Virus record (IMG/VR): IMGVR_UViG_3300030497_000009
DNA from: a virus
Strand: one strand, 5' to 3'
Length of the DNA stretch: 64,000 bases
Shown here piece by piece: positions 2,106 to 62,604 of the stretch. The position numbers were made by a program, and so were the translations under genes. Below the pieces are notes generated by a model, which was not told where the DNA came from, did not search any database, and saw only the letters and a list, made by a program, of their open reading frames with translations. Numbering within the stretch: position 1 is the stretch's first letter; every line of letters begins with the position of its first letter.

Positions 2106-2846
2106 ATGGAAGTATATGTTGGAATAATAATCACGCTAGTTATCATGGAGGGGCTGTTGTCTTTTGACAACGCCTTGGTACTAGCTACTATGGCTGGTAA
2201 AATTAAGGATCCGAAGTTGCAAAAGAAAGCCCTAACTTATGGTATGGCTGGCGCGGTTGCGTTCCGTGCGCTGTTTATCTTCCTTGGTGTTGTCTTAATT
2301 AAGTTCTGGTGGCTAAAAGTATTGGGTGGGGCATACCTACTTAAGTTGGCTTATGATCACTTCTTTAAGAATGAAGATGAGGACGAGGATGGCGTACTAG
2401 ATAAATACCAAGATACGTTACTTCATAAGTTCTTACGTAAGTTTGGTGTTCATCTATCATTCTTCTGGTCAGTAATTATCTCCATTGAGCTTATGGACTT
2501 AGCTTTCTCAGTAGACTCGATCCTTGCGGCATTAGCTTTATCTGATAAATTCTGGGTGCTTTTAGTTGGTGGTGTGTTAGGTATTGCGATGATGCGTGGT
2601 GTCGCTGGCGTATTCATTAAGCTAATCGAGAGAGTTCCTGAAATGGAAACGACTGCATACCTGCTAATCGTAATTATCGCGGTGAAGATGTTACTAAGTA
2701 CGGTTCATAATATCGCTGGATTGTTTGGACATACGATGGTTGAGATTGAGATTGGCCACGGGTTATTCTTCGCTATCCTTGGTGCTACGTTCCTTGGTAC
2801 GTTCGTTGTACACTTTATCCGTAAGCCTAAAACTAAACAAGCATAA
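2106..2846 (+). CDS. terC: TerC-family membrane protein (YceF/YkoY-like)
   Basis: MEGLLSFDNALVLA and DLAFSVDSILAA signature motifs; multiple hydrophobic helices. Confidence 0.93.
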   Translation: MEVYVGIIITLVIMEGLLSFDNALVLATMAGKIKDPKLQKKALTYGMAGAVAFRALFIFLGVVLIKFWWLKVLGGAYLLKLAYDHFFKNEDEDEDGVLDKYQDTLLHKFLRKFGVHLSFFWSVIISIELMDLAFSVDSILAALALSDKFWVLLVGGVLGIAMMRGVAGVFIKLIERVPEMETTAYLLIVIIAVKMLLSTVHNIAGLFGHTMVEIEIGHGLFFAILGATFLGTFVVHFIRKPKTKQA

Positions 2847-4360: not shown

Positions 4361-4383
4361 GGCTCTTTTTGTTTGTCAACACA

Positions 4384-4416
4384 GGAGTAAAAAGGTGTGA
4401 TGTAACCTTTTATTAG
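4384..4416 (+). promoter_or_regulatory. Phage-sigma (middle-like) promoter
   Basis: GGAGTA-N18-TTTTATTAG. Confidence 0.75.
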
Positions 4417-12370: not shown

Positions 12371-12392
12371 AAAAGATATGGTGAACAACGCA

Positions 12393-12425
12393 GGAGCAGA
12401 TTCCTGCGTTTTCATCTTTTATTAG
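12393..12425 (+). promoter_or_regulatory. Phage-sigma (middle-like) promoter overlapping an inverted repeat
   Basis: GGAGCA-N18-TTTTATTAG inside AACGCAGG...CCTGCGTT. Confidence 0.75.
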
Positions 12426-19433: not shown

Positions 19434-21086
19434 ATGGAAGAAGAGTTAAAGCCGATAACCGATTTTGATGGAAAAGTTTACACCATAGAAGAAGCACTAC
19501 AGAGACATAATGGATTCCTGTGGACTGTCGCTAAAAAATACCAAGCTTCTGGTAAAGAGTATGGGCTTGGAACGGACGACCTAAACAGCATCGCTAAAAT
19601 GGGTTTGGTAAAAGCCTTTAAGAAGTTCGATTCAGGTGCTGGTGTTAAGTTCATAACTTACATGAGTCGGTGTGCTGAGAATGAAGTCCTGATGGCTTTA
19701 CGTAATGGGGCTACAGCTACTGGTAAGTGGGGGCTAGCTCGTCATAGAGCAAAGGTGTTCTACGAGAAGTTTCCTGAACAACAACCAACGATTGAGAAAA
19801 TAATCGAAGCTACAGGCTGTGACTACAATGGTGCTGTTAAGGTTATTGACTACATGGTACGTAGGCACGGACAGTCACTAGATGCTGAGATGTCTGTCCA
19901 CAACGGTGAAGATAACATAACCTTTGGTGACATGGTTGGAAAGAACGCTGACTACACGAGAATCCATATAAGTGAATACTTTGAAGTCCTAGACACCCGT
20001 GAAAGGCAAATAGTCGATTTAATGATGGAAGATGTTCAGCAACATGAGATTGGTAAACGTCTTGGCGTCAGTCAGTCGTACGTTAGCCGGTTGATTGGTA
20101 GAATAAAATTTAAAATGGAGAAAGTCCAGAGAGGGGAAAGAGTAATGAAAAGACAGAACAACGATACTCAATATAAAAAAGCTATCATTGAGGAAGCTAG
20201 AAATCTATTGCGTTCAGGGTTAACTATTTCTCAGGTTGTGAAGGCTACTGGAATGCCCCAAGCTTCCGTTTATTACTATAATGGTCAGGTAGAACTAGAA
20301 AAGAAAAAGGCGAACGCTACAGCGAAACCTCAGGCTCCTAAGAAGGATCTACCGAAACCGAAAGCTGTAACGCCTGACGAGGTAGCGCAAGCGAAGCCAG
20401 TGAAAGAAACTGAAACCCTTCGTGAGAAGCATGTGATTCACGCTGGTAAGCTTAAAGATAATCCGATTGCTAACCTGCCTGCCATTATTGAGGATCTACG
20501 AAAACAGCTTACTACTGCCCAGAATGAAGCGAAGTCTCACAAAGCTGAATTAGATAACGCACAGAAAATCGTGTTGTCTTATAAAGAGAAGGAAGAAAGT
20601 CGCAAGAAGCTTATCGAGAAACAAGGAGACCACATCGTTGAACTTAAGACCAACGTTAATACTCTAATCGCACAGGAGTTAGACTCCATGAAGAAATTAA
20701 ATGAGCTAGAAGAACGTCATAAAAAGGCTTTAAAACGTGAAGATGCCAAAGTCAAAGAAGCTGCTGACTTACAAGTACGTTGGGAGAAAGCTCAAGCACT
20801 TATCGAGAAACAGTTTGCTGAACTTGAAACAGCTAACGAAGCTGTGTTGGTTGCTGACCAACGAGTTGAAGAAGCTCACGCCAAGATTGCTAAGCTGGAA
20901 GCGAAGCTTGAGGATTATAACAAACCTTGTGATCTGGTTGAAGAGAAAGAACCTGACTTACGTGTTAAGTACTTTAAAACTGACTGGGAGAGAACAGCTC
21001 GTGAGAACGGGAGAATAATTACTGAACTCCATCACAAAGTGGAAGAACTAAAAGCGATTGCTAAAAAGGCGGTTAACTTACTATGA
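19434..21086 (+). CDS. Sigma-70-family sigma factor fused to an extra HTH and a long coiled coil
   Basis: Region 2 (DDLNSIAKMGLVKAFKKFD...KFITYMSRCAENEV), region 4 (RERQIV...QQHEIGKRLGVSQSYVSRL), second HTH (LTISQVVKATGMPQASVYYY), then about 250 aa of heptads. Confidence 0.85.
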   Translation: MEEELKPITDFDGKVYTIEEALQRHNGFLWTVAKKYQASGKEYGLGTDDLNSIAKMGLVKAFKKFDSGAGVKFITYMSRCAENEVLMALRNGATATGKWGLARHRAKVFYEKFPEQQPTIEKIIEATGCDYNGAVKVIDYMVRRHGQSLDAEMSVHNGEDNITFGDMVGKNADYTRIHISEYFEVLDTRERQIVDLMMEDVQQHEIGKRLGVSQSYVSRLIGRIKFKMEKVQRGERVMKRQNNDTQYKKAIIEEARNLLRSGLTISQVVKATGMPQASVYYYNGQVELEKKKANATAKPQAPKKDLPKPKAVTPDEVAQAKPVKETETLREKHVIHAGKLKDNPIANLPAIIEDLRKQLTTAQNEAKSHKAELDNAQKIVLSYKEKEESRKKLIEKQGDHIVELKTNVNTLIAQELDSMKKLNELEERHKKALKREDAKVKEAADLQVRWEKAQALIEKQFAELETANEAVLVADQRVEEAHAKIAKLEAKLEDYNKPCDLVEEKEPDLRVKYFKTDWERTARENGRIITELHHKVEELKAIAKKAVNLL

Positions 21087-21599: not shown

Positions 21600-21693
21600 A
21601 CTATTTAAATGAGACCGCAAAGCGTTCATACTAGATATACAAAGACATACTGTGATAAACGGTATGTCTTTTATTTTGAAAGGAGAGGATAAC

Positions 21694-22293
21694 ATGGCAG
21701 ACACATATGCTAACTGGGCTGAATTATCAGCAAATGAAACTGAAGGTGTTGACTATCTACTCGACTATAAGGATGAAAACACGGACTTCATCGTTCTTGC
21801 TATTCATGGTGGTGGTATCGAGGGTGGAACTTCTGAGGTACTTCGAGAGGTAGCAAAAGGACATTCATACTTCTTATTCGAAGCGATTAAAAGCAGTGGT
21901 AACCAAGACTTACACTTAACATCTACGCACTTCGATGAGCCACACGCGTTACAACTTACTGGTGACTCAGTGTTTTCTTTGTCTCTTCACGGATATTCTG
22001 GTGATGAGCTAAACACTAAGATTGGTGGAGGCAACAGAGAGCTAGTTCAAAAAGCTTATGACGAACTAACAGCTGCTGGTTTTAACGCTGAGATTCTACC
22101 ACTAGACGGTGGGCTGGCAGGTACTGACCCAGATAATATCTGTAACCGAACGTCTGAGCAAGGTGTTCAGTTGGAAATGAGTACTGGACAACGTAAAGCG
22201 CTGTTTGGAACATTTACGATGGCTGATCGTAAAAACACTCAGAATGCAACGTTCTACAAGTACGCGCAAGCCTTAACAAAGATTATGGGATAA
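21694..22293 (+). CDS. pghP: Poly-gamma-glutamate hydrolase (PghP family)
   Basis: DTYANWAEL, AIHGGGIEGGTSE, LHLTSTHFDEP, SLHG, NICNR, GVQLEMS motifs. Confidence 0.9.
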   Translation: MADTYANWAELSANETEGVDYLLDYKDENTDFIVLAIHGGGIEGGTSEVLREVAKGHSYFLFEAIKSSGNQDLHLTSTHFDEPHALQLTGDSVFSLSLHGYSGDELNTKIGGGNRELVQKAYDELTAAGFNAEILPLDGGLAGTDPDNICNRTSEQGVQLEMSTGQRKALFGTFTMADRKNTQNATFYKYAQALTKIMG

Positions 22294-24304: not shown

Positions 24305-24392
24305 CCTCTCCTTTTATGACTCAGATTAACTTACAAACTAATCATATAACTATTATATCCACAATTCAACAGTTTATTCCTAAAATTGTCAA
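24305..24392 (-). promoter_or_regulatory. SigmaA-type early promoter with conserved leader (copy E)
   Basis: TTGACA, then 23 bp later TTGAAT-N17-TATGAT; 33 nt of leader identical to copy B. Confidence 0.8.
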
Positions 24393-24418
24393 AAAGAAAA
24401 GCACCCACTTTACGGGTG

Positions 24419-25771
24419 CTACATATCACGGGATTTCACGCCCACCGTGCCAAGGCGTTTTACCTTATTCCAGTTATGTTTGTCTTTACTTAAGAAGTAG
24501 TTGACCGAACCATAAGCGAAAATAATAGGATCCATCAGGCGGAACGTGAACGTTTCAAATAGTGAGAAGAAGAAAAGCTTCACATAACTCATCTTATAGA
24601 ACGAATACCCGTAACGACTAGCGATTTGGTACGCAATCAATCTTGAACCCACTTGGAATACGAAGCTGAGAGCCACCAACGTTAAGAAATACGCGTCGTA
24701 GGTCTTAAAGATAACGATTAGAGGGAACGCACACAGCGTAATAATCCCCGTAACACCTTGCATTAACGAGTCCCAAAGTAGAACCAAGACAAACTTAAAC
24801 GTAAATCCACCCGTAAAGAAAGCTTTCTTATACTTGACCATGCAATCGATGAAACCTTTTTGCCATCTAGTCTTTTGCTTGAAAGAGTCTCTAAAGTTTT
24901 CTGGAACTTCCGTATAACAAACGGCTTCTGGAATAAAGATAAGCTTTCCTTTTCTGAACTTCTGCTTAATGTACTGCTGTAGGTTAAGTGTGATTTCCAT
25001 ATCTTCTCCGAGCGTCTTTTTGTATCCACCAATATCGTAAAGCACGTTACGTCTGAAGGCACCAAAGGCACCTGATACGATTGCTAGAACGTTTATGGAA
25101 GCTTGGGTACTCTTACGTAAATAAAACGAATTGAGGTAATCTGAAAGCTGATAAAGCACAAGCCCCTTGCCTTTAAACTTTTTCTTGCCTGCTTCGTCGA
25201 ATATCTGACCCACGTGAACCATACCGCCAGCACCAATGACTTCTTCATCCTGAAAGCTTTGGTTAATATAGTGAAGCGCGTTTTCCTCTAGTACGCTATC
25301 CGCGTCCAACGTAATAACAACATCCCCACTAGCGTAGTCAATAGCGGCATTTAGGGAGTCGGCTTTACCACCGTTCACTTTATCAATGAGGATCATGTTA
25401 GGGTACTTACGAGATTTGTAGACTGTGATTGTTGGGGCATAAATTAGCTTTCCACTAGGATTCTCTGGGATAGGAACAGCATCTAGGAGCTTTTCAAGTA
25501 GAGGTAACGTTTGGTCACTAGAACCATCGTTTACAAACACAGCTTCGTAGTTATCATAATTTAGAGCCAACATACTTTCCAAACAGTTTTCCACAACGGC
25601 TTCTTCGTTATAAGCCGGTATCAGGATCGAGATTTTAGACTGCTTTAGCGTGGTGTCAAGAGGGGAAACCCCTCTCTTTTTGAACAACGGGTACGCGATA
25701 TAAAAGAGTTGGAACGCCAAAAACGATAGAAACAGAAACAAACCAATATACATATTAACAGACATATTCAT
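24419..25771 (-). CDS. Processive family-2 glycosyltransferase (IcaA/PgaC/NodC-like polysaccharide synthase)
   Basis: IPAYNEE, VNDGSSD, NGGKADSLN, LDADS, SGAFGAFRR, GEDME, QKTRW (QxxRW); one N-terminal and several C-terminal TM helices. Confidence 0.92.
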   Translation of the reverse strand: MNMSVNMYIGLFLFLSFLAFQLFYIAYPLFKKRGVSPLDTTLKQSKISILIPAYNEEAVVENCLESMLALNYDNYEAVFVNDGSSDQTLPLLEKLLDAVPIPENPSGKLIYAPTITVYKSRKYPNMILIDKVNGGKADSLNAAIDYASGDVVITLDADSVLEENALHYINQSFQDEEVIGAGGMVHVGQIFDEAGKKKFKGKGLVLYQLSDYLNSFYLRKSTQASINVLAIVSGAFGAFRRNVLYDIGGYKKTLGEDMEITLNLQQYIKQKFRKGKLIFIPEAVCYTEVPENFRDSFKQKTRWQKGFIDCMVKYKKAFFTGGFTFKFVLVLLWDSLMQGVTGIITLCAFPLIVIFKTYDAYFLTLVALSFVFQVGSRLIAYQIASRYGYSFYKMSYVKLFFFSLFETFTFRLMDPIIFAYGSVNYFLSKDKHNWNKVKRLGTVGVKSRDM

Positions 25772-26532
25772 TATTTATACACCCTCACATAGTCAATTTT
25801 GAAATCCACAGGAAACTTTTGGTTCTTAGCTGGAGCGCCAGCCCATGTTCCGCCAACCGCGGTATTAATATAGAGATACATCGGAACATTAGGCGACTTC
25901 TTGGACACGAAGGTAACTTTTCCGTCGAGCGTAAAGGTTACTTTATCCTTTCGCCACTCCACACCGTATACGTGGAAGTCATCTGTCAAGTTCGCTTTCG
26001 AGGTAACACCAGTGAAGTCTCGCTTGTGTTTACCGCGCTCTTGGTAGTGAATGACGTTCCACAGTTCGTTCGGCTTTTCAGCTAGCAATTCGGCAAAGTC
26101 AATTTCAGGATACGGCTCTCCATTCTCTGGTAGCATCCAAATAGCTGGTAGCAACCCCTTTCCTTTAGGGAACTTCGCTCTTACTTCGATTTTACCATAC
26201 TTTATCGGGGCTTTTCCTTGGGTGGTAATCGCACTGGAAGTATACGTAAAGCCCTTATAGTTTTCTTTCTTCGTTTCTAGTGACAAAATACCTTTGTTCA
26301 CAGTAACATTTTTCGGGACGTAGCGGTGTAGCCTTCCGTGGTCTTTCCAACCTTCATCTAGCAGATTCCATCTTTTCTTATTGAGATTGTCAAAGTTGTC
26401 TTCCCAAACGAGGTTACTATCTTTCTTCTCGATAACGTGTTCAACTTTTGGAGCCGGTGTAGGATCTTCGACTTTCGTAGCACACGCGGTTAACATAGCG
26501 ACAGATGACATAACTAACAGAACTTTTTTCAA
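25771..26532 (-). CDS. GH16 glycoside hydrolase lipoprotein
   Basis: Lipobox LTAC; YGKIEVRAK.P.GKGL.PAIW; catalytic EIDFAE (ExDxxE); FHVYGVEW; IDYVRVY; TAATG overlap with the GT2 gene. Confidence 0.92.
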   Translation of the reverse strand: MKKVLLVMSSVAMLTACATKVEDPTPAPKVEHVIEKKDSNLVWEDNFDNLNKKRWNLLDEGWKDHGRLHRYVPKNVTVNKGILSLETKKENYKGFTYTSSAITTQGKAPIKYGKIEVRAKFPKGKGLLPAIWMLPENGEPYPEIDFAELLAEKPNELWNVIHYQERGKHKRDFTGVTSKANLTDDFHVYGVEWRKDKVTFTLDGKVTFVSKKSPNVPMYLYINTAVGGTWAGAPAKNQKFPVDFKIDYVRVYK

Positions 26533-26574
26533 AACATATCCACTCCTTTATATTCAAGGGTTGCCCCTTCTATT

Positions 26575-26631
26575 AACTGACTATACTACTATTCTATTCA
26601 CAGTTCAACACTTTATTCCGAAATTTGTCAA
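26575..26631 (-). promoter_or_regulatory. SigmaA-type early promoter (copy F) driving GH16-GT2
   Basis: TTGACA, then 23 bp later TTGAAC-N17-TATAGT. Confidence 0.75.
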
Positions 26632-26764: not shown

Positions 26765-27070
26765 GAGTGACAAGAACTTTTTTACCCCGTAATGAAAGAC
26801 TTGTAAATACTTGAATATATGTATATATTATAATAAACATACAGTGTACATGAATGACGTGTTCAATTCAGAAAACATAAAGTTTTCTGAAGCGATGTAC
26901 AACATCGCTGTACAACCATAAAATAAGAAAAAGAACTTCTACAATTCTTCTTAGCGGTTTACTGTACTCTGAGCTTGTCTGTAATAGGGTTATTTAACGT
27001 TTAAATACGATTCTGGTTTAAATACCTTCTATAGAAGTAAAGGGTGTTTAAAACGAAATCTGAAGGCTCT
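26765..27070. repeat. Structured non-coding element, copy 1 (origin-like)
   Basis: 32-nt block identical to 53962-53993, AT-rich tract, twin hairpins, and a 19-nt block identical to 54220-54238. Confidence 0.8.
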
Positions 27071-28927: not shown

Positions 28928-28935
28928 TACACAAA

Positions 28936-28968
28936 GGAGTAAAAAGATGACGTGTAGACTTTTATTAG
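28936..28968 (+). promoter_or_regulatory. Phage-sigma (middle-like) promoter
   Basis: GGAGTA-N18-TTTTATTAG. Confidence 0.75.
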
Positions 28969-42826: not shown

Positions 42827-44466
42827 CCATGAACGAACAGGCGCTTTTAGAGCGAATGAAGAAAGAGATACCTGAGCTTTATGCGCTCCAGTATCACACT
42901 ATACGTGGAAAGCCGTTGACGTTTCACATTAAAAATAAAAATGAAAAGAAAGCTCGTGGACATCGTCCTTGGCAGACAGCCATCATTAACGATGCACACC
43001 CAGATAAAATCGTGCGTAAGTCACGTCAGTTGGGTTTATCAGAAATGGGACTTATCGAGAACATTCAGTTTGCGGACGTGAAGAATAACGTTAAAACGAT
43101 GTTAACGTTCCCACGTAACCGTCAGCTGGTTGACTTTGTAAAAACCCGTATGAACCCTGTATTCGATAATAACCCTTACTTTAAATCAATACTTGACCCT
43201 GCGATGAACTCTATTGAGGTTAAAAAGATTCGTGATAGCTTCTTAATGTTCCGTTCAGCATGGGGTGGAGCGTTGGGGGAGGGTGCGGATATTGACTTTC
43301 TAGCCTTCGATGAATATGACCGTATGTCTGATGGCGTAGAATTAGCCTTCCAAGAGTCTATGAAATCTTCTGCTTACGGATGGTTGCGTCGTTGGTCTAC
43401 ACCTACGATCCCCGGACGAGGGGTTGACTTACAGTTTGGTAAATCCGATCAACGTTTCTACATGCATAAATGTGAAGCTTGTAACGAGTGGCAGGTTATT
43501 AATGCTGAGGATAACATCTTCCAATACAAGAAAGATGGTATTGACTTGATGACTGACGAGATTCAGGATGGCACGTTCGGATTCGTTTGCTCTCACTGTT
43601 CTAAGCCTTTAGACCGTTGGTACAACGGGGAATGGGTTGCGAAGTATCCTGACCGAAAAGCTATCCGTGGTTATCACATTTCACAGCTTAATGCGGTGTG
43701 GATTTCTGCCGATGACGTTAAACGACGTGAATTAAAATACACCTCTAAACAGCTATTCTATAACTACGTTATTGGAGAGCCGTATGCCAGTGAAGGTTTG
43801 GTAATTACAGAGGACGATATCTTAGGCAGTAAGCGATTCGAAACGCGCGTACACAGCCGACAGAGCTACAAGAAAACCGTTGTAGGAATTGACTGGGGTA
43901 TTCGAAACTGGTGTCTAGTGCTAGGTATTAAAGAGGATGGCCAAGTTGATTTGCTAAACCTCTTTATGTTCCCTGATAACCCACAGAAACCTCTGGAGCC
44001 GGTTGGAATGATTGCGGCAAGTATTAAGCCTTACGATCCTGATTTAATTATTGCGGATGCTGGGTTTGGTGCTGACCGGAATACGTATCTAATGCAATTA
44101 TTTCCTGGTGTTACTTGGGCTTGTCAGTACAATACGTATAAGGGTAAGTCAAAACCACAAGATTCATGGAACGAACAAGGTAGAATGATAAACGTTGATA
44201 AAACAGTTAAAGTTCAACGTATGCTTCATACTGTAAAAGGGCGCGGTGTGGGGATGTGGCGTATGGACGATGACCTCATGATTTTCACCAAGCATCTTAA
44301 AAACGTTCGTGTGATGGACGAAGAGGACGATGGGATTGTTTATCAGGTAGCTACTCGAATTGGTGACGACCACTGGAGTTCTTGTTTGGTCTACGCACTA
44401 ATTGGCGTTGAAAAATTAAAAGGTATCTACCTTCCAAAGCAGGATTTCAATTTCGATTTCATGTAG
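42823..44466 (+). CDS. terL: Terminase large subunit (SPO1/Twort-like)
   Basis: YHTIRGKPLTF, HRPWQ, KSRQLGLSE, FDEYDR, RRWSTPTIPG, CGKP-like CSKPLDRWYNGEW, GIDWG, GDDH. Confidence 0.95.
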   Translation: MTMNEQALLERMKKEIPELYALQYHTIRGKPLTFHIKNKNEKKARGHRPWQTAIINDAHPDKIVRKSRQLGLSEMGLIENIQFADVKNNVKTMLTFPRNRQLVDFVKTRMNPVFDNNPYFKSILDPAMNSIEVKKIRDSFLMFRSAWGGALGEGADIDFLAFDEYDRMSDGVELAFQESMKSSAYGWLRRWSTPTIPGRGVDLQFGKSDQRFYMHKCEACNEWQVINAEDNIFQYKKDGIDLMTDEIQDGTFGFVCSHCSKPLDRWYNGEWVAKYPDRKAIRGYHISQLNAVWISADDVKRRELKYTSKQLFYNYVIGEPYASEGLVITEDDILGSKRFETRVHSRQSYKKTVVGIDWGIRNWCLVLGIKEDGQVDLLNLFMFPDNPQKPLEPVGMIAASIKPYDPDLIIADAGFGADRNTYLMQLFPGVTWACQYNTYKGKSKPQDSWNEQGRMINVDKTVKVQRMLHTVKGRGVGMWRMDDDLMIFTKHLKNVRVMDEEDDGIVYQVATRIGDDHWSSCLVYALIGVEKLKGIYLPKQDFNFDFM

Positions 44467-44498
44467 GAGCAACTTTTGTATTTTCTTCCTTTTATTAG
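44466..44498 (+). promoter_or_regulatory. Phage-sigma (middle-like) promoter
   Basis: GGAGCA-N18-TTTTATTAG overlapping the terL stop. Confidence 0.7.
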
Positions 44499-46890: not shown

Positions 46891-47961
46891 ATGACAGTTA
46901 AAAAGTTTGAAAATAATCCGCACCTAGAGGGAACCAGAGACGAATATTTGGAAAGTCATATAAAGATGGTATATAAAGTAGCGCAGAGCTTTTACGCGCG
47001 AGGTGAGGAATTTGGGTTAGACACCGACGATGTTGACCAAATTGGGATGATTGGGTATATTAAAGCTTACGATAACTATGACCCAACCAACGCGAAACTT
47101 AAGGGCAGAGTAACAAAGTTTACAACTTATGCTTATCCAAAGATAAAGGGCGAAATACTACGATACTTTGCGAACGTGGGGCAGGGTGGGATGAAAGTTT
47201 CGAGAACAGTAATTGACTTAGCGTTGAAGCTACGTTATTCAGAAAGAACATATAGTACAGCTAGCGATGTTATGGAAGATTACGATGTTTCCGAGTGGAT
47301 GGCATGCGACGCTCTTGAAATAGTTCATCACGGTAAATACACAATTTCGGCTGAGTCACCGATTACAACCGGATTGTCTGGTGATGAAGAACTACGCATA
47401 ATGGACGTAATGGAAGGGGATCTTAATGTTCACTCAATCGTTTTAAATGAATTTTTAAGTACGTTGACTTACAATCAGCGACGAATTGTTGAGTTGCGGT
47501 TTATCCACTTTTACACACAGGCAGAAGTTGGAGAAATTCTGGGTATCACACAAGCCCACGTTTCGAGGGTTGAGAAAGCGGTACGAGAAATTACTGCAAC
47601 TTGGCTTGAGTTCGGGTACACGGCAACTTATCTAAAACCAGAAACATATCTTTTTGATAAGATGCAACGAGAACGAATTGAAAAGCGTGAAGCTGAGAAG
47701 CAAGCGAAACTTGCGAAACCAAAGCCTGTTAGAAAGGGAAGACCCATCCGTGGCGACATCGAGCTGGCCAGAGAGCTTATGATGAACTCAGATTTGTCAC
47801 CGAGAGAAATTCACCTACAAACAAGAGTGTCATACCATATCGTGTTAAAGCTTGACAAAGAGCTACGCACTAAGGCTAAACGCAAGAAGGTTAAAACGCG
47901 TGTTGCGAAAGAACGTTATGAAAAGCTACATTCTGAGGTGGCAGCGTCACGTGAAGCCTAA
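46891..47961 (+). CDS. Sigma-70-family sigma factor (SigF/SigG-like) with C-terminal basic HTH extension
   Basis: DDVDQIGMIGYIKAYDNYD...KFTTYAYPKIKGEILRY; TQAEVGEILGITQAHVSRVE; extra HTH LSPREIHLQTRVSYHIV. Confidence 0.87.
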   Translation: MTVKKFENNPHLEGTRDEYLESHIKMVYKVAQSFYARGEEFGLDTDDVDQIGMIGYIKAYDNYDPTNAKLKGRVTKFTTYAYPKIKGEILRYFANVGQGGMKVSRTVIDLALKLRYSERTYSTASDVMEDYDVSEWMACDALEIVHHGKYTISAESPITTGLSGDEELRIMDVMEGDLNVHSIVLNEFLSTLTYNQRRIVELRFIHFYTQAEVGEILGITQAHVSRVEKAVREITATWLEFGYTATYLKPETYLFDKMQRERIEKREAEKQAKLAKPKPVRKGRPIRGDIELARELMMNSDLSPREIHLQTRVSYHIVLKLDKELRTKAKRKKVKTRVAKERYEKLHSEVAASREA

Positions 47962-53961: not shown

Positions 53962-54275
53962 GAGTGACAAGAACTTTTTTACCCCGTAATGAAGTACATG
54001 TAAATATATAATATATTAATAATACTTGTATATGTATGTATAATACAATATGTTACATACATGTTCAATTCAATTACTTCGTAATTGAAGGCTACGCCTG
54101 TACAACTATTTTCTTGTTCAGATAGGAAATTCTTTATTAGTCGAATACGAGAGCGAAAGGTTAAGCTATACTGACCAGTGAGAAATACGAGAATAGATTT
54201 ATTCACTCGTTTAATCTCTTTCTGGTTTAAATACCTTCGAAAGTATAAAAACGTGCTTAAAACGAATCTGAGAGC
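53962..54275. repeat. Structured non-coding element, copy 2 (origin-like)
   Basis: Same ordered blocks as 26765-27070. Confidence 0.8.
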
Positions 54276-59991: not shown

Positions 59992-62604
59992 ATGGCACCA
60001 AGAAATGGATTAGTACCCGTTCAGCGTACCGTAACACGTCATGGGGTAACGTTTCAAACTACAGTTTGGATTAAACCTAAACATTCTAACAGCGTTCAGC
60101 ATGGTAGTCACGTACAAGTACCAACTTGGAACTTTAGTTCTTCAGCTGACCTAAAGAATGAAGTTGACCGAATTAATAAAGTAAAAGACCGTTCAGAGCG
60201 TCGTATCCTGAAAGAAAACCTTCTTGACCATATCGAAAACCACATGGGCGTTAAGTGGCAAAAGGTAGCGGATAATGAAGACCGTGCGTTTGCGAGAAAC
60301 ACGATGAAAGCCCTTTCAGCTGCGAAGAAACATCTTGATAGCCAACCTGCTACTCCAGCGCAACCTGCCCCTTCTCAGCCGGCTCAACAGGCACCGGCTG
60401 GTAATGGTAAGATGGGTATTACGAAGCAACCAGGAAAAGATTACGTAATGGACAGAGATACATCGAAGAAGATGGCTCGTGACTTCCGTGACCAACACGG
60501 TATGGACGAAGTTGTTAAGATGCTAAAAGACAACGGGATTACGTGGAACGAAGTTCCTGATGCAGGTCCGAATAACATGCGTGCGTTACGTGCGTTAGCG
60601 AGCTTTATGCGTAAGGGTGGACAACTTGGAGCAACAGCGCAAGCTACACCTCAACAGAATCCAGCACAGCCGGCTCCGGTTTTAAATAACCCAAACCAAC
60701 CAATGCAAAAGAAATCGAAGTATGAAAAGGACTCGATTCAGCACGATTACGAACAAGCGAAACCTCATCATAAGCTTATTGGCTTGGCTACTGGGGTTAT
60801 GCCTTTAGATGATGAAACGGCTACGTATCTTAAAGGACTTATTGACACTGGCCAAATGGGTTTATTGGGTGAAGATGGCGGTGGAGCTGATTACAAACTT
60901 CCGAAAGCCCTTAATAACGAACTTGATCCTGTCATCAGTTCCATTAACAGAGGTGAAAATCATCTTGGTGACCAAGCTTCGTTCTTGTACGCGAAACAGA
61001 TGTTTGAGGGCACTCAATATGAAGCAAACTTCAAGGAATATGAAAAGAGCAGGGATAGCTTCAAGACTAAATACCGTGAAAAAGCCGATGAAATGATGAG
61101 TGAAGGTGTAAAGGGCATCGAAGCTTCCAAAAAACTTTTAGAAGCACTAAACGAAGTGGACAAAGACTGGCTTGACCTGTCAGGTGAAGATTTCCTTGAG
61201 GAACTCCATATTAAGATAGGCAACCTTAAAGGCAAAAGTGACACTGAGATTGATGAAGCTTGGGATAAGTATGGGATGGATGACCTTTTTGCGCAAGGGC
61301 GTACATTCATGGATAGCAACCATTCGATTATAGAAGTCTTAGTAAGAGCTGGGATAACAAACGCAAACGCGTTTAGTACTGTAGAGAGCATGCTAACTGG
61401 TCCTGGCCAAACCAACATGGCTTCTATTAGACAGGCGTTGGTTAGTGGTTCATTAACAAAACGACAAATCTTTGCACGTATGGAGAACGACATGGGTATG
61501 ACAATAAGCTTGAGAGGTTCTTCACAACCAATGACTAACAACCTTGCGAAACGTTGGAATACTGGAGCCACCGGTTTGCTACAACAAGCTGTTCATGAGC
61601 ACGTACACGGTCCTGTTACCAGTTTTTCAGGAAGTTCACAACCTATCCCATTTAAACAAGACGAGTTCTTAAAGATGTGTGATGAAGCACTTGCTGATTT
61701 AGCTCCAATGAAAACTCCGGAAGGTCAGCATGTAGAGTACAACATTCAAGTAGCTCGTGGACTTCGATACGCTTATGATTTTGGAAATATCAAAAGAGTT
61801 CCGCACACACCTGTGCCTATGGATGACTTTCTAAGTGGACGTAGTAATGAGAACATTATCAAAACGCACATTGGGGCTGAGCGTCAAAAGTCCGAGAAGT
61901 CTAAGCAGAATTACATTAACAAAGTTAAAGAGAAACAAAATAAAAACTTTGGCAAGATACTTCGTGATGGCGTTGACCCAACAAAAGTTGATTTCCCAGA
62001 TGCTGCTGACGTTAAAGAGGTTGTTAAAACAACCCTTATGAAAGTTGATGCTGCTGAAACGGCTAAAGTTGCGGCAAATGTAGCCCGTTCTCATGATAAC
62101 GCCAACCACGGCTCTTTCAGAACGAAGGTTCATGGGGTTTACCGTGTTAAACGTATTTCCTCCGAAGAAAAATATCAGAAGGTCAGCAAAGATATTGGTA
62201 ATGAAGGGTTTTATTATCATGGAACGTCTTTTGATACAGCACAAAAGATTCTAGGTATGACCGGTGGATTCAAAGTCTTCACAGCTGCTGACGGTAACAA
62301 AATTAAAGCTGGAAGTATGCTAGGCTACGGTATTTATCTTGCTAAACAGTCTTCTAAATCAATGCAGTATGTAGGCTCTGGTTTCCGTTCTGGAAGTCGT
62401 GGTGTACTATTCGTTTGTAAAGCGGCACTTGGTAATGTGGTTCAAACGCGTTCCCGTGGCTGTGCAGCCAACCAACCGATTATGAACCGTGCGTCTACAG
62501 ACACAGTCTTTATGGATAAGCCTGACGTTATCAACCCAGAGTGGGCTGTTAAACGAGCTGAGCAAGCTGTACCAAGACTTTGGATTGACGCAGAACGTGT
62601 CTGA
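59992..62604 (+). CDS. 870-aa multidomain protein with C-terminal PARP-like (H-Y-E) ADP-ribosyltransferase domain
   Basis: SHDNANHGSFRTKVHGVYRVKR..EEKY...GNEGFYYHGT ... GSMLGYGIYLA..SSKS.QY ... GVLFVCKAALG ... NPEW; two N-terminal copies of the shared module. Confidence 0.85.
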   Translation: MAPRNGLVPVQRTVTRHGVTFQTTVWIKPKHSNSVQHGSHVQVPTWNFSSSADLKNEVDRINKVKDRSERRILKENLLDHIENHMGVKWQKVADNEDRAFARNTMKALSAAKKHLDSQPATPAQPAPSQPAQQAPAGNGKMGITKQPGKDYVMDRDTSKKMARDFRDQHGMDEVVKMLKDNGITWNEVPDAGPNNMRALRALASFMRKGGQLGATAQATPQQNPAQPAPVLNNPNQPMQKKSKYEKDSIQHDYEQAKPHHKLIGLATGVMPLDDETATYLKGLIDTGQMGLLGEDGGGADYKLPKALNNELDPVISSINRGENHLGDQASFLYAKQMFEGTQYEANFKEYEKSRDSFKTKYREKADEMMSEGVKGIEASKKLLEALNEVDKDWLDLSGEDFLEELHIKIGNLKGKSDTEIDEAWDKYGMDDLFAQGRTFMDSNHSIIEVLVRAGITNANAFSTVESMLTGPGQTNMASIRQALVSGSLTKRQIFARMENDMGMTISLRGSSQPMTNNLAKRWNTGATGLLQQAVHEHVHGPVTSFSGSSQPIPFKQDEFLKMCDEALADLAPMKTPEGQHVEYNIQVARGLRYAYDFGNIKRVPHTPVPMDDFLSGRSNENIIKTHIGAERQKSEKSKQNYINKVKEKQNKNFGKILRDGVDPTKVDFPDAADVKEVVKTTLMKVDAAETAKVAANVARSHDNANHGSFRTKVHGVYRVKRISSEEKYQKVSKDIGNEGFYYHGTSFDTAQKILGMTGGFKVFTAADGNKIKAGSMLGYGIYLAKQSSKSMQYVGSGFRSGSRGVLFVCKAALGNVVQTRSRGCAANQPIMNRASTDTVFMDKPDVINPEWAVKRAEQAVPRLWIDAERV

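Follow-up and report, generated by a model that had tools for sequence, protein, structure and literature searches.

Does a lytic phage carry genes with which an infected cell would make a polysaccharide, and if so, which polymer would these genes give? The question is raised by two coupled genes at positions 24419-26631 of IMG/VR virus record IMGVR_UViG_3300030497_000009, one coding for a lipoprotein of glycoside hydrolase family 16 (GH16) and the other for a membrane glycosyltransferase of family 2 (GT2). The whole stretch of 64,000 nucleotides (nt) is referred to as the window, and all coordinates are window positions. Phages are known for enzymes that destroy the surface polysaccharides of their hosts; a phage that brings a complete minimal machine for making a polymer is unusual. 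The unit can be described as a synthase system resembling ica/pga, in which the partner is a GH16 and the carriers are lytic phages. It is fairly probable that the pair is a working phage-carried module for synthase-dependent exopolysaccharide of the ica/pga type, the polymer being most likely composed of N-acetylglucosamine (GlcNAc).

Organization of the operon

Both open reading frames lie on the minus strand, and the TAA stop of the GH16 gene has one base in common with the ATG start of the GT2 gene (TAATG), which bears out the coupling described earlier from the letters of the sequence. The parts of the operon, in the order of reading, are as follows.

26580..26631, minus strand: promoter cassette of the operon (TTGACA at 26626-26631; TTGAAC at 26603-26608; 17-nt spacer; TATAGT at 26580-26585)
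26543..26549, minus strand: ribosome-binding site of the GH16 gene, AAAGGAG, 10 nt upstream of its TTG start, as read from the sequence
25771..26532, minus strand: GH16 lipoprotein gene, 253 amino acids (aa), TTG start
24419..25771, minus strand: membrane GT2 synthase gene, 450 aa, ATG start
24400..24420, minus strand: intrinsic terminator directly after the GT2 stop, 9-bp stem with 5 G-C pairs, then a T run

The next copy of the promoter cassette starts at 24392 and serves a downstream gene of 88 aa, which is therefore a separate transcription unit. Since a terminator follows the GT2 gene and the next gene has a cassette of its own, the pair forms a closed two-gene unit. The preliminary description had placed the unit under phage control, and its own promoter, a repeated cassette of the phage, together with the terminator, agrees with this.

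The membrane synthase

The GT2 protein is matched by GT2 families of Pfam at up to 1e-26. The full D,D,D,QxxRW set attributed to it is present: D82, D156-A-D158, G255-E256-D257 and Q299-K-T-R302-W303 are invariant in 42 homologues, and the tail has conserved W434, R439 and G441. The AlphaFold2 model has a mean predicted local distance difference test (pLDDT) of 85.3 and a predicted template modelling score (pTM) of 0.87. The predicted parts are:

Residues 5-30: N-terminal transmembrane helix
Residues ~47-310: GT-A domain
Residues 325-355, 360-386, 393-407 and 410-427: C-terminal helices

In a Foldseek comparison of the model with solved structures, the hyaluronan synthase of Chlorella virus came first (E 1e-18, template modelling score (TM) up to 0.68), followed by Xenopus HAS1, yeast Chs1 and BcsA. 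Among reviewed proteins, the top matches were PgaC of E. coli and staphylococcal IcaA (TM 0.69-0.81), then NodC, B. subtilis YdaM, streptococcal HasA and fungal chitin synthases, with TM 0.63-0.81 across the GT2 hits. The best NCBIfam model was PgaC_IcaA (TIGR03937) with 140.9 bits (E 5e-41), NodC scoring 48 and CelA 40.

A membrane GT2 could also be a glycolipid or lipid-carrier transferase that alters the membrane or the teichoic acids of the host, the GH16 acting independently on a host glycan. Cyanobacterial beta-monoglucosyl-diacylglycerol synthases do match the model (TM 0.73-0.76), and so do, at the N-terminus, PHROG families of GtrB, the seroconversion transferases, which are likewise phage-borne GT2 enzymes and alter the surface of the host. 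The GtrB matches, however, span only about 50 to 125 N-terminal residues in the nucleotide-binding part (PHROG 841, residues 45-96; PHROG 34335, residues 46-171), whereas the alignments with hyaluronan synthase, PgaC and IcaA extend over the full length and take in QxxRW and the C-terminal bundle. GtrB enzymes, which have about two C-terminal transmembrane helices, make a lipid-linked monosaccharide and work together with GtrA and GtrC; no GtrA or GtrC neighbours of the GT2 gene were found among the open reading frames of the window, and the phage GT2 differs by its QxxRW motif and its predicted C-terminal channel. The fixed endo-glycanase neighbour, and the deacetylase in relatives, also fit a polymer. 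A lipid transferase is thus very improbable. Because of its motifs, its C-terminal helix bundle and its full-length synthase fold, and because the GtrB matches are N-terminal only, the GT2 is predicted to be a membrane-embedded polymerising synthase and not a GtrB-type lipid-linked transferase, which tells against an objection that the preliminary description had raised against itself. The C-terminal helix bundle is predicted to be an export channel.

The GH16 lipoprotein

The N-terminus of the GH16 protein, MKKVLLVMSSVAMLTAC, contains a standard lipobox, L-T-A-C, with Cys17, and agrees with the pattern [LVI][ASTVI][GAS]C; the closest homologues have LTAC, LVSC, LTSC or LASC. The protein is accordingly predicted to be lipid-anchored. 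Residues 18-40 are a low-confidence linker between the signal peptide and the catalytic domain, a beta-jelly-roll in the AlphaFold2 model (pLDDT 91.5). Pfam Glyco_hydro_16 (PF00722) matches at 3.8e-26, and the top 50 fold matches of the model are all GH16 enzymes. In the catalytic motif E143-I-D145-F-A-E148, E143 and E148 are invariant and D145 is found in at least 90% of 33 homologues, so that both the lipid anchor and the intact ExDxxE motif claimed for this protein stand. A role as virion depolymerase or lysis enzyme was considered and rejected on account of the lipoprotein signal peptide and the fixed adjacency to the synthase in bacteria.

It is the GH16 alone that speaks for a beta-glucan product (beta-1,3, mixed beta-1,3/1,4 or beta-1,3/1,6), which the GT2 would make from UDP-glucose and on which the GH16 would act as a laminarinase-type endoglucanase. 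Its best matches are laminarinases and endo-1,3(4)-glucanases, and the nearest solved structures are laminarinases and beta-1,3-glucanases (E 1e-33, 35% identity, TM 0.75-0.79); the NCBIfam matches are EglC, ExoK and BglS. The laminarinase of Thermotoga maritima (3AZX), of a type that we take to be CAZy subfamily GH16_3, has the same beta-jelly-roll and ExDxxE motif at this identity. The phage enzyme differs in being shorter, lipid-anchored and fixed beside a PgaC-like synthase, and in the cleft, where two laminarinase tryptophans are replaced or deleted. Throughout the GT2-linked GH16 group the WPA-W motif has L, F, I or M in place of its first tryptophan, and the loop with GWP before GEID is deleted; in sequence alignments both tryptophans are kept in more distant GH16 homologues and in the Thermotoga laminarinase. 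One of the best four sequence matches (6t2n, E 3e-32) is a GH16 endo-O-glycanase active on mucin glycans that contain GlcNAc, which also tells against a beta-glucan product. The GH16 may have a new substrate specificity, and a beta-glucan made and cut by the pair is a doubtful, if serious, option.

Occurrence in bacteria

Bacterial genomes were surveyed with one genome per species, and gene order was counted in the 80 best GT2 loci. At least 492 relatives of the GT2 were found, mostly in Bacillota, and the same contigs recur in the match lists of the GH16 and GT2 proteins. In about 37 of these loci, the gene directly upstream of the GT2 gene, and on its strand, codes for a GH16. Directly downstream, about 27 have a polysaccharide deacetylase of carbohydrate esterase family 4 (CE4), about 24 of these with the GH16 as well, and in one bacterial locus CE4 and GH16 are fused in one protein. 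The CE4 partners from sampled Bacillaceae (L019, L031) have IcaB and PgaB as their best NCBIfam models (88-120 bits), while for that of Pelosinus (L017) the matching models are those of peptidoglycan deacetylase, PdaB and NodB. In a sister clade, mainly of Paenibacillus, the order is GT2, Acyl_transf_3, GH18.

In the GT2 tree, the window falls within a clade of 21 members with a support of 100 in the Shimodaira-Hasegawa-like approximate likelihood ratio test (SH-aLRT). This clade comprises Planococcus, Planomicrobium, the chromosomal copies L001 and L003 and the phage copies. L001 and L003 are ordinary bacterial chromosomes with the order GH16 then GT2. Among the clade members with fetched context (all but five), the arrangement is GH16-GT2 without CE4, except that L005 and P0015 (L094) have the GT2 alone. 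The main clades recur in the GH16 tree, and GH16 and GT2 hence travel as a unit. By gene order and trees, the pair is a conserved, widespread module of Bacillota that was taken up by several phage lineages, and is not specific to phages.

An earlier operon survey, which contains no experiments, describes ica-like operons from Bacillus and further Gram-positives outside the staphylococci, in which IcaB is divergent and putative fusions to hydrolases occur (PMC7112194). No experimental work on the GH16-GT2(-CE4) module was found in the literature. The likening of the GT2 to the mixed-linkage glucan synthase of Romboutsia ilealis was dropped; the paper on that enzyme has no GH16 and no gene-cluster context of the synthase. 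A more distant clade of the GT2 family (L080-L090, for example L080 2765-3988) has a HEAT-repeat protein as upstream partner in place of the GH16.

The phage and its relatives

The window is assigned by its genes to a Herelleviridae-like myophage, apparently a large soil phage with Bacillus-like bacteria as predicted hosts; its sequence occurs in plant and rhizosphere metagenomes. The large terminase subunit has 80% identity to its counterpart in Lysinibacillus phage vB_LfM_LysYB1 and 65-76% to those of several Bacillus myophages. A portal protein, a tail spike, two sigma factors, a helicase, an endolysin and a poly-gamma-glutamate hydrolase are also encoded. The gene of the latter (21652-22293, plus strand; Pfam PF05908, 2e-65) lies at the edge of the minus-strand block that holds the operon, and a capsule-degrading enzyme is thus found near the polymer-making unit in the same phage.

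The pair is found at the same position in two close relatives of the window phage (L091, L092). It is also found on at least four phage-like contigs beyond this lineage (L002, L004, L093, L097); L002 and L004 were compared with the window and have only the pair in common with it. L002, a contig of 33 kb (Logan SRR23037907), carries the pair between the genes for a primase and a phage metallopeptidase, and codes also for a ligase and for a DnaB with 81% identity to DnaB of Bacillus phage G. On this evidence it is placed as an uncultured relative of phage G, and phage G is itself absent from the GT2 and GH16 matches in 50,697 deposited phage records.

No close homologue of the GT2 or the GH16 was found in these deposited records, in keeping with the preliminary description, which knew of no equivalent in lytic Bacillus phages. 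The best GT2 match there has 35% identity over 59% of the protein, and the best GH16 matches 28-32%, mostly from Sinorhizobium and Rhizobium phages. A megablast search of the same records with the operon region and 43 kb of flanks returned nothing except a stretch of 63 bp within the terminase gene. No relative came out of single-protein scans of IMG/VR; a profile scan of IMG/VR returned distant GT2 genes only, without GH16, one of them (L006) in the GT2-acyltransferase-GH18 clade. A limited literature search for phage-borne polysaccharide synthases, including those of the poly-N-acetylglucosamine (PNAG) type, and for GH16 enzymes of Bacillus phages gave nothing relevant, and no earlier description of a synthase and glycanase unit in phages was found in it.

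The pair could be passive cargo, recently taken from a host and silent in the phage or useless to it. The closest bacterial copies are 51-54% identical and stand in ordinary chromosomal contexts, and a sequencing-run search with the window returned DNA metagenomes only (plant, rhizosphere, root and soil), with no usable RNA run. Against such cargo stand the phage-type promoter cassette and the terminator, the G+C content of the pair, which is like that of the remainder of the window, the common position in L091 and L092, and the presence in unrelated phage-like contigs. The GT2 gene is, moreover, under strong purifying selection in the phage lineage: between the window and L091 the number of synonymous substitutions per site (dS) is 0.24 and the ratio of nonsynonymous to synonymous substitutions (dN/dS) 0.044, which argues that the function is kept by the phage. 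Useless cargo is consequently a most unlikely explanation.

The GH16 genes of the same two phages (window 25771-26532; L091 3276-4034) have a dS of about 1.3 and 68% protein identity, the catalytic residues being kept in both alleles. Since they stand between a promoter that is 99% identical and a GT2 gene that is 95% identical in nucleotides, it looks as if the GH16 allele had been replaced by recombination.

Transcription signals

The cassette before the operon (26600-26631) is one of seven copies found in the window by a looser scan, with about 110 bp alignable, and a strict pattern of 33 nt has three matches in the window against none expected in shuffles. The copies of the cassette and examples of a second repeated motif are:

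~3949 (plus), 23598 (minus), 24361 (minus), 26600 (minus), 37779 (plus), 48986 (plus) and 50232 (plus): promoter cassette copies
4383-4416, 12392-12425, 28935-28968 and 44465-44498, plus strand: example sites of the second-class motif
19434-21086 and 46891-47961: sigma factor genes of the phage

Five cassette copies were aligned. A T run precedes each, and a recognisable hairpin precedes three, the operon copy not being among them. The order of elements is T run, TTGACA, 15 nt, TGTTGAA-N-TGTG and a TATGAT-type hexamer 17 nt after the TTGAA box; the 3' part is a conserved leader with AAAGGAG as its end. The hexamers (TTGACA; TTGAAC-17-TATAGT) are sigma-A-like. The second class, AGGAG-N19-CTTTTATTAG, has 14 copies, all on the plus strand and none before the operon, whose cassette differs from this AGGAG...TTTTATTAG repeat class. 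An internal promoter-like site in the GT2 gene (25632-25659, 11 of 12 positions matching) was taken as chance.

In phage SPO1, early genes are read from host sigma-A promoters, and middle genes have an AGGAGA and TTT-N-TTT element that is used by a phage sigma factor. The second class presumably corresponds to the SPO1 middle-promoter consensus, which it resembles, and by this analogy one of the two sigma factors of the phage probably recognises its sites. The operon would, by the same analogy, belong to the class read by the host polymerase and hence be read early. With its own promoter of sigma-A-like hexamers and its own terminator, the unit is probably read by host RNA polymerase from the start.

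An element of about 300 bp, non-coding and without a match in Rfam, occurs twice in the window with 27 kb between the copies (26765-27057 and 53962-54266), its blocks being 93% and 73% identical (families D8, D14). The intergenic region immediately upstream of the operon promoter, between divergent genes, holds the first copy.

The polymer

The two proteins pull in opposite directions, the GH16 being beta-1,3-glucanase-like and the synthase GlcNAc-polymerase-like. The preliminary description had named beta-1,3/1,4-glucans or galactans as what GH16 enzymes typically cut, which led to the reading of a beta-glucan product. The laminarinase-like character of the GH16 is upheld, whereas the relatives of the synthase and the partners in sister clades point to GlcNAc. 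A GlcNAc polymer is favoured because the nearest characterised synthases are all GlcNAc polymerases, the cellulose model CelA scoring lowest of the three profiles, and because the sister clades pair the synthase with enzymes that need N-acetylated sugars, either an IcaB/PgaB-like CE4 or a GH18 with an acyltransferase. The balance of these comparisons tips modestly towards a GlcNAc-based polymer, either PNAG-like or chitin-like. A plain beta-glucan comes second and is on the whole unlikely.

Several points weigh against a GlcNAc-polymerising module of the ica/pga type. The PgaC_IcaA score of 141 bits is far under the curated cut-off of 422.3, and identity to PgaC, IcaA and HasA is only about 20%; sugar specificity is therefore not transferable to the phage GT2, and GT2 synthases at such a distance can differ in their sugar, which leaves room for glucose. 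No CE4 homologue is found in the window, and the clade with the phage copies is likewise without CE4 in the fetched contexts, CE4 being confined to a sister clade of bacteria; this is also in keeping with a beta-glucan. If the phage product is GlcNAc-based, it would stay fully acetylated, given this lack of a deacetylase. No IcaD- or PgaD-like small membrane protein is present in the two-gene unit. To these points are added the laminarinase structures nearest to the GH16, the dependence of promoter class and timing on the analogy with SPO1, and the restriction of the matching sequencing runs to DNA.

Proposed function

In the proposed working of an ica/pga-type module, host RNA polymerase would read the unit as soon as infection begins, and the infected cell would acquire a changed surface. 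The GT2 would be embedded in the host membrane, its catalytic domain facing the cytoplasm; it would polymerise a UDP-sugar of the host processively and export the chain through its helix bundle. The lipid-anchored GH16, on the outer side of this membrane, would trim, release or transfer the emerging chain. Hydrolases of this cognate kind regularly belong to synthase-dependent systems (PMC7112194, PMC7710045). By analogy with these systems, a new polysaccharide would probably appear at the surface of infected cells, extruded by the synthase, and the phage may benefit through blocked adsorption of further phages or through the clumping or shielding of infected cells.

Comparison with known systems

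The closest counterparts are the systems for poly-beta-1,6-GlcNAc, IcaADBC of staphylococci and PgaABCD of E. coli, which have the best profile and fold matches to the phage GT2. In them a membrane GT2 of about 410-450 aa both polymerises and exports the chain, and bacterial relatives of the phage GT2 have an IcaB/PgaB-like CE4 beside the synthase. A hydrolase accompanies the synthase in both cases, as the C-terminal hydrolase domain of PgaB (PMC7112194) or as the GH16; the phage hydrolase is, however, a GH16 lipoprotein and not a PgaB hydrolase domain. The phage unit also differs by the lack of IcaD/PgaD, IcaC and PgaA and, in its clade, of a deacetylase, and the likeness is known from sequence and model.

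The YdaJKLMN system of B. subtilis, which has a glycoside hydrolase partner, YdaJ, a receptor for cyclic di-GMP (c-di-GMP) and extra subunits, is another synthase-dependent operon of a Gram-positive. Its GT2, YdaM (420 aa), matches the phage model with TM 0.75-0.80. The hydrolase is of another family, and the genes for the c-di-GMP receptor and the extra subunits are not in the phage unit.

To our knowledge, the synthesis of hyaluronan and chitin by chloroviruses is the only well-studied viral parallel. Of the solved structures, that of the chlorovirus hyaluronan synthase matches the phage GT2 best, although this enzyme belongs to a eukaryotic giant virus, has 17-20% identity and is without a coupled glycanase gene. 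Like the chitin synthases of this group, the hyaluronan synthase (PBCV-1 A98R) is a virus-encoded processive GT2, and is expressed from about 10-15 min after infection onwards (PMC5408694). Infected algae are covered with fibres within 15 min and the attachment of other viruses is inhibited, the purpose being still debated (PMC5408694). Chlorovirus fibres have been seen, whereas the tailed phage of Gram-positives is known here from its genes.

Other features of the window

Further genes of the window were recorded in the same analysis, and scans of the window with Rfam and for tRNA genes were both empty. The genes are:

59992-62604, plus strand: 870-aa protein with a PARP catalytic domain (Pfam PF00644, 1e-14), just 5' of the portal gene
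2106-2846, plus strand: TerC-family membrane protein (1.2e-49)
702-1286 and 1355-1939: two tandem 194-aa paralogues adjoining the TerC-family gene, with repeats D10, D16 and D17 in common

Implications

The unit would give a first handle on a GH16-GT2(-CE4) module with at least 492 synthase relatives, and a bacterial version of two genes would make the purpose of viral polysaccharide synthesis experimentally tractable. Tentatively, several large lytic phage lineages of Bacillus-like bacteria may cause an early PNAG- or chitin-like GlcNAc polymer to be made, which would block competitors or clump or shield the infected cells, with a GH16 of new specificity as its partner. If an early GlcNAc polymer is indeed made, it would be the first counterpart in a prokaryotic virus of the hyaluronan and chitin fibres of chloroviruses.

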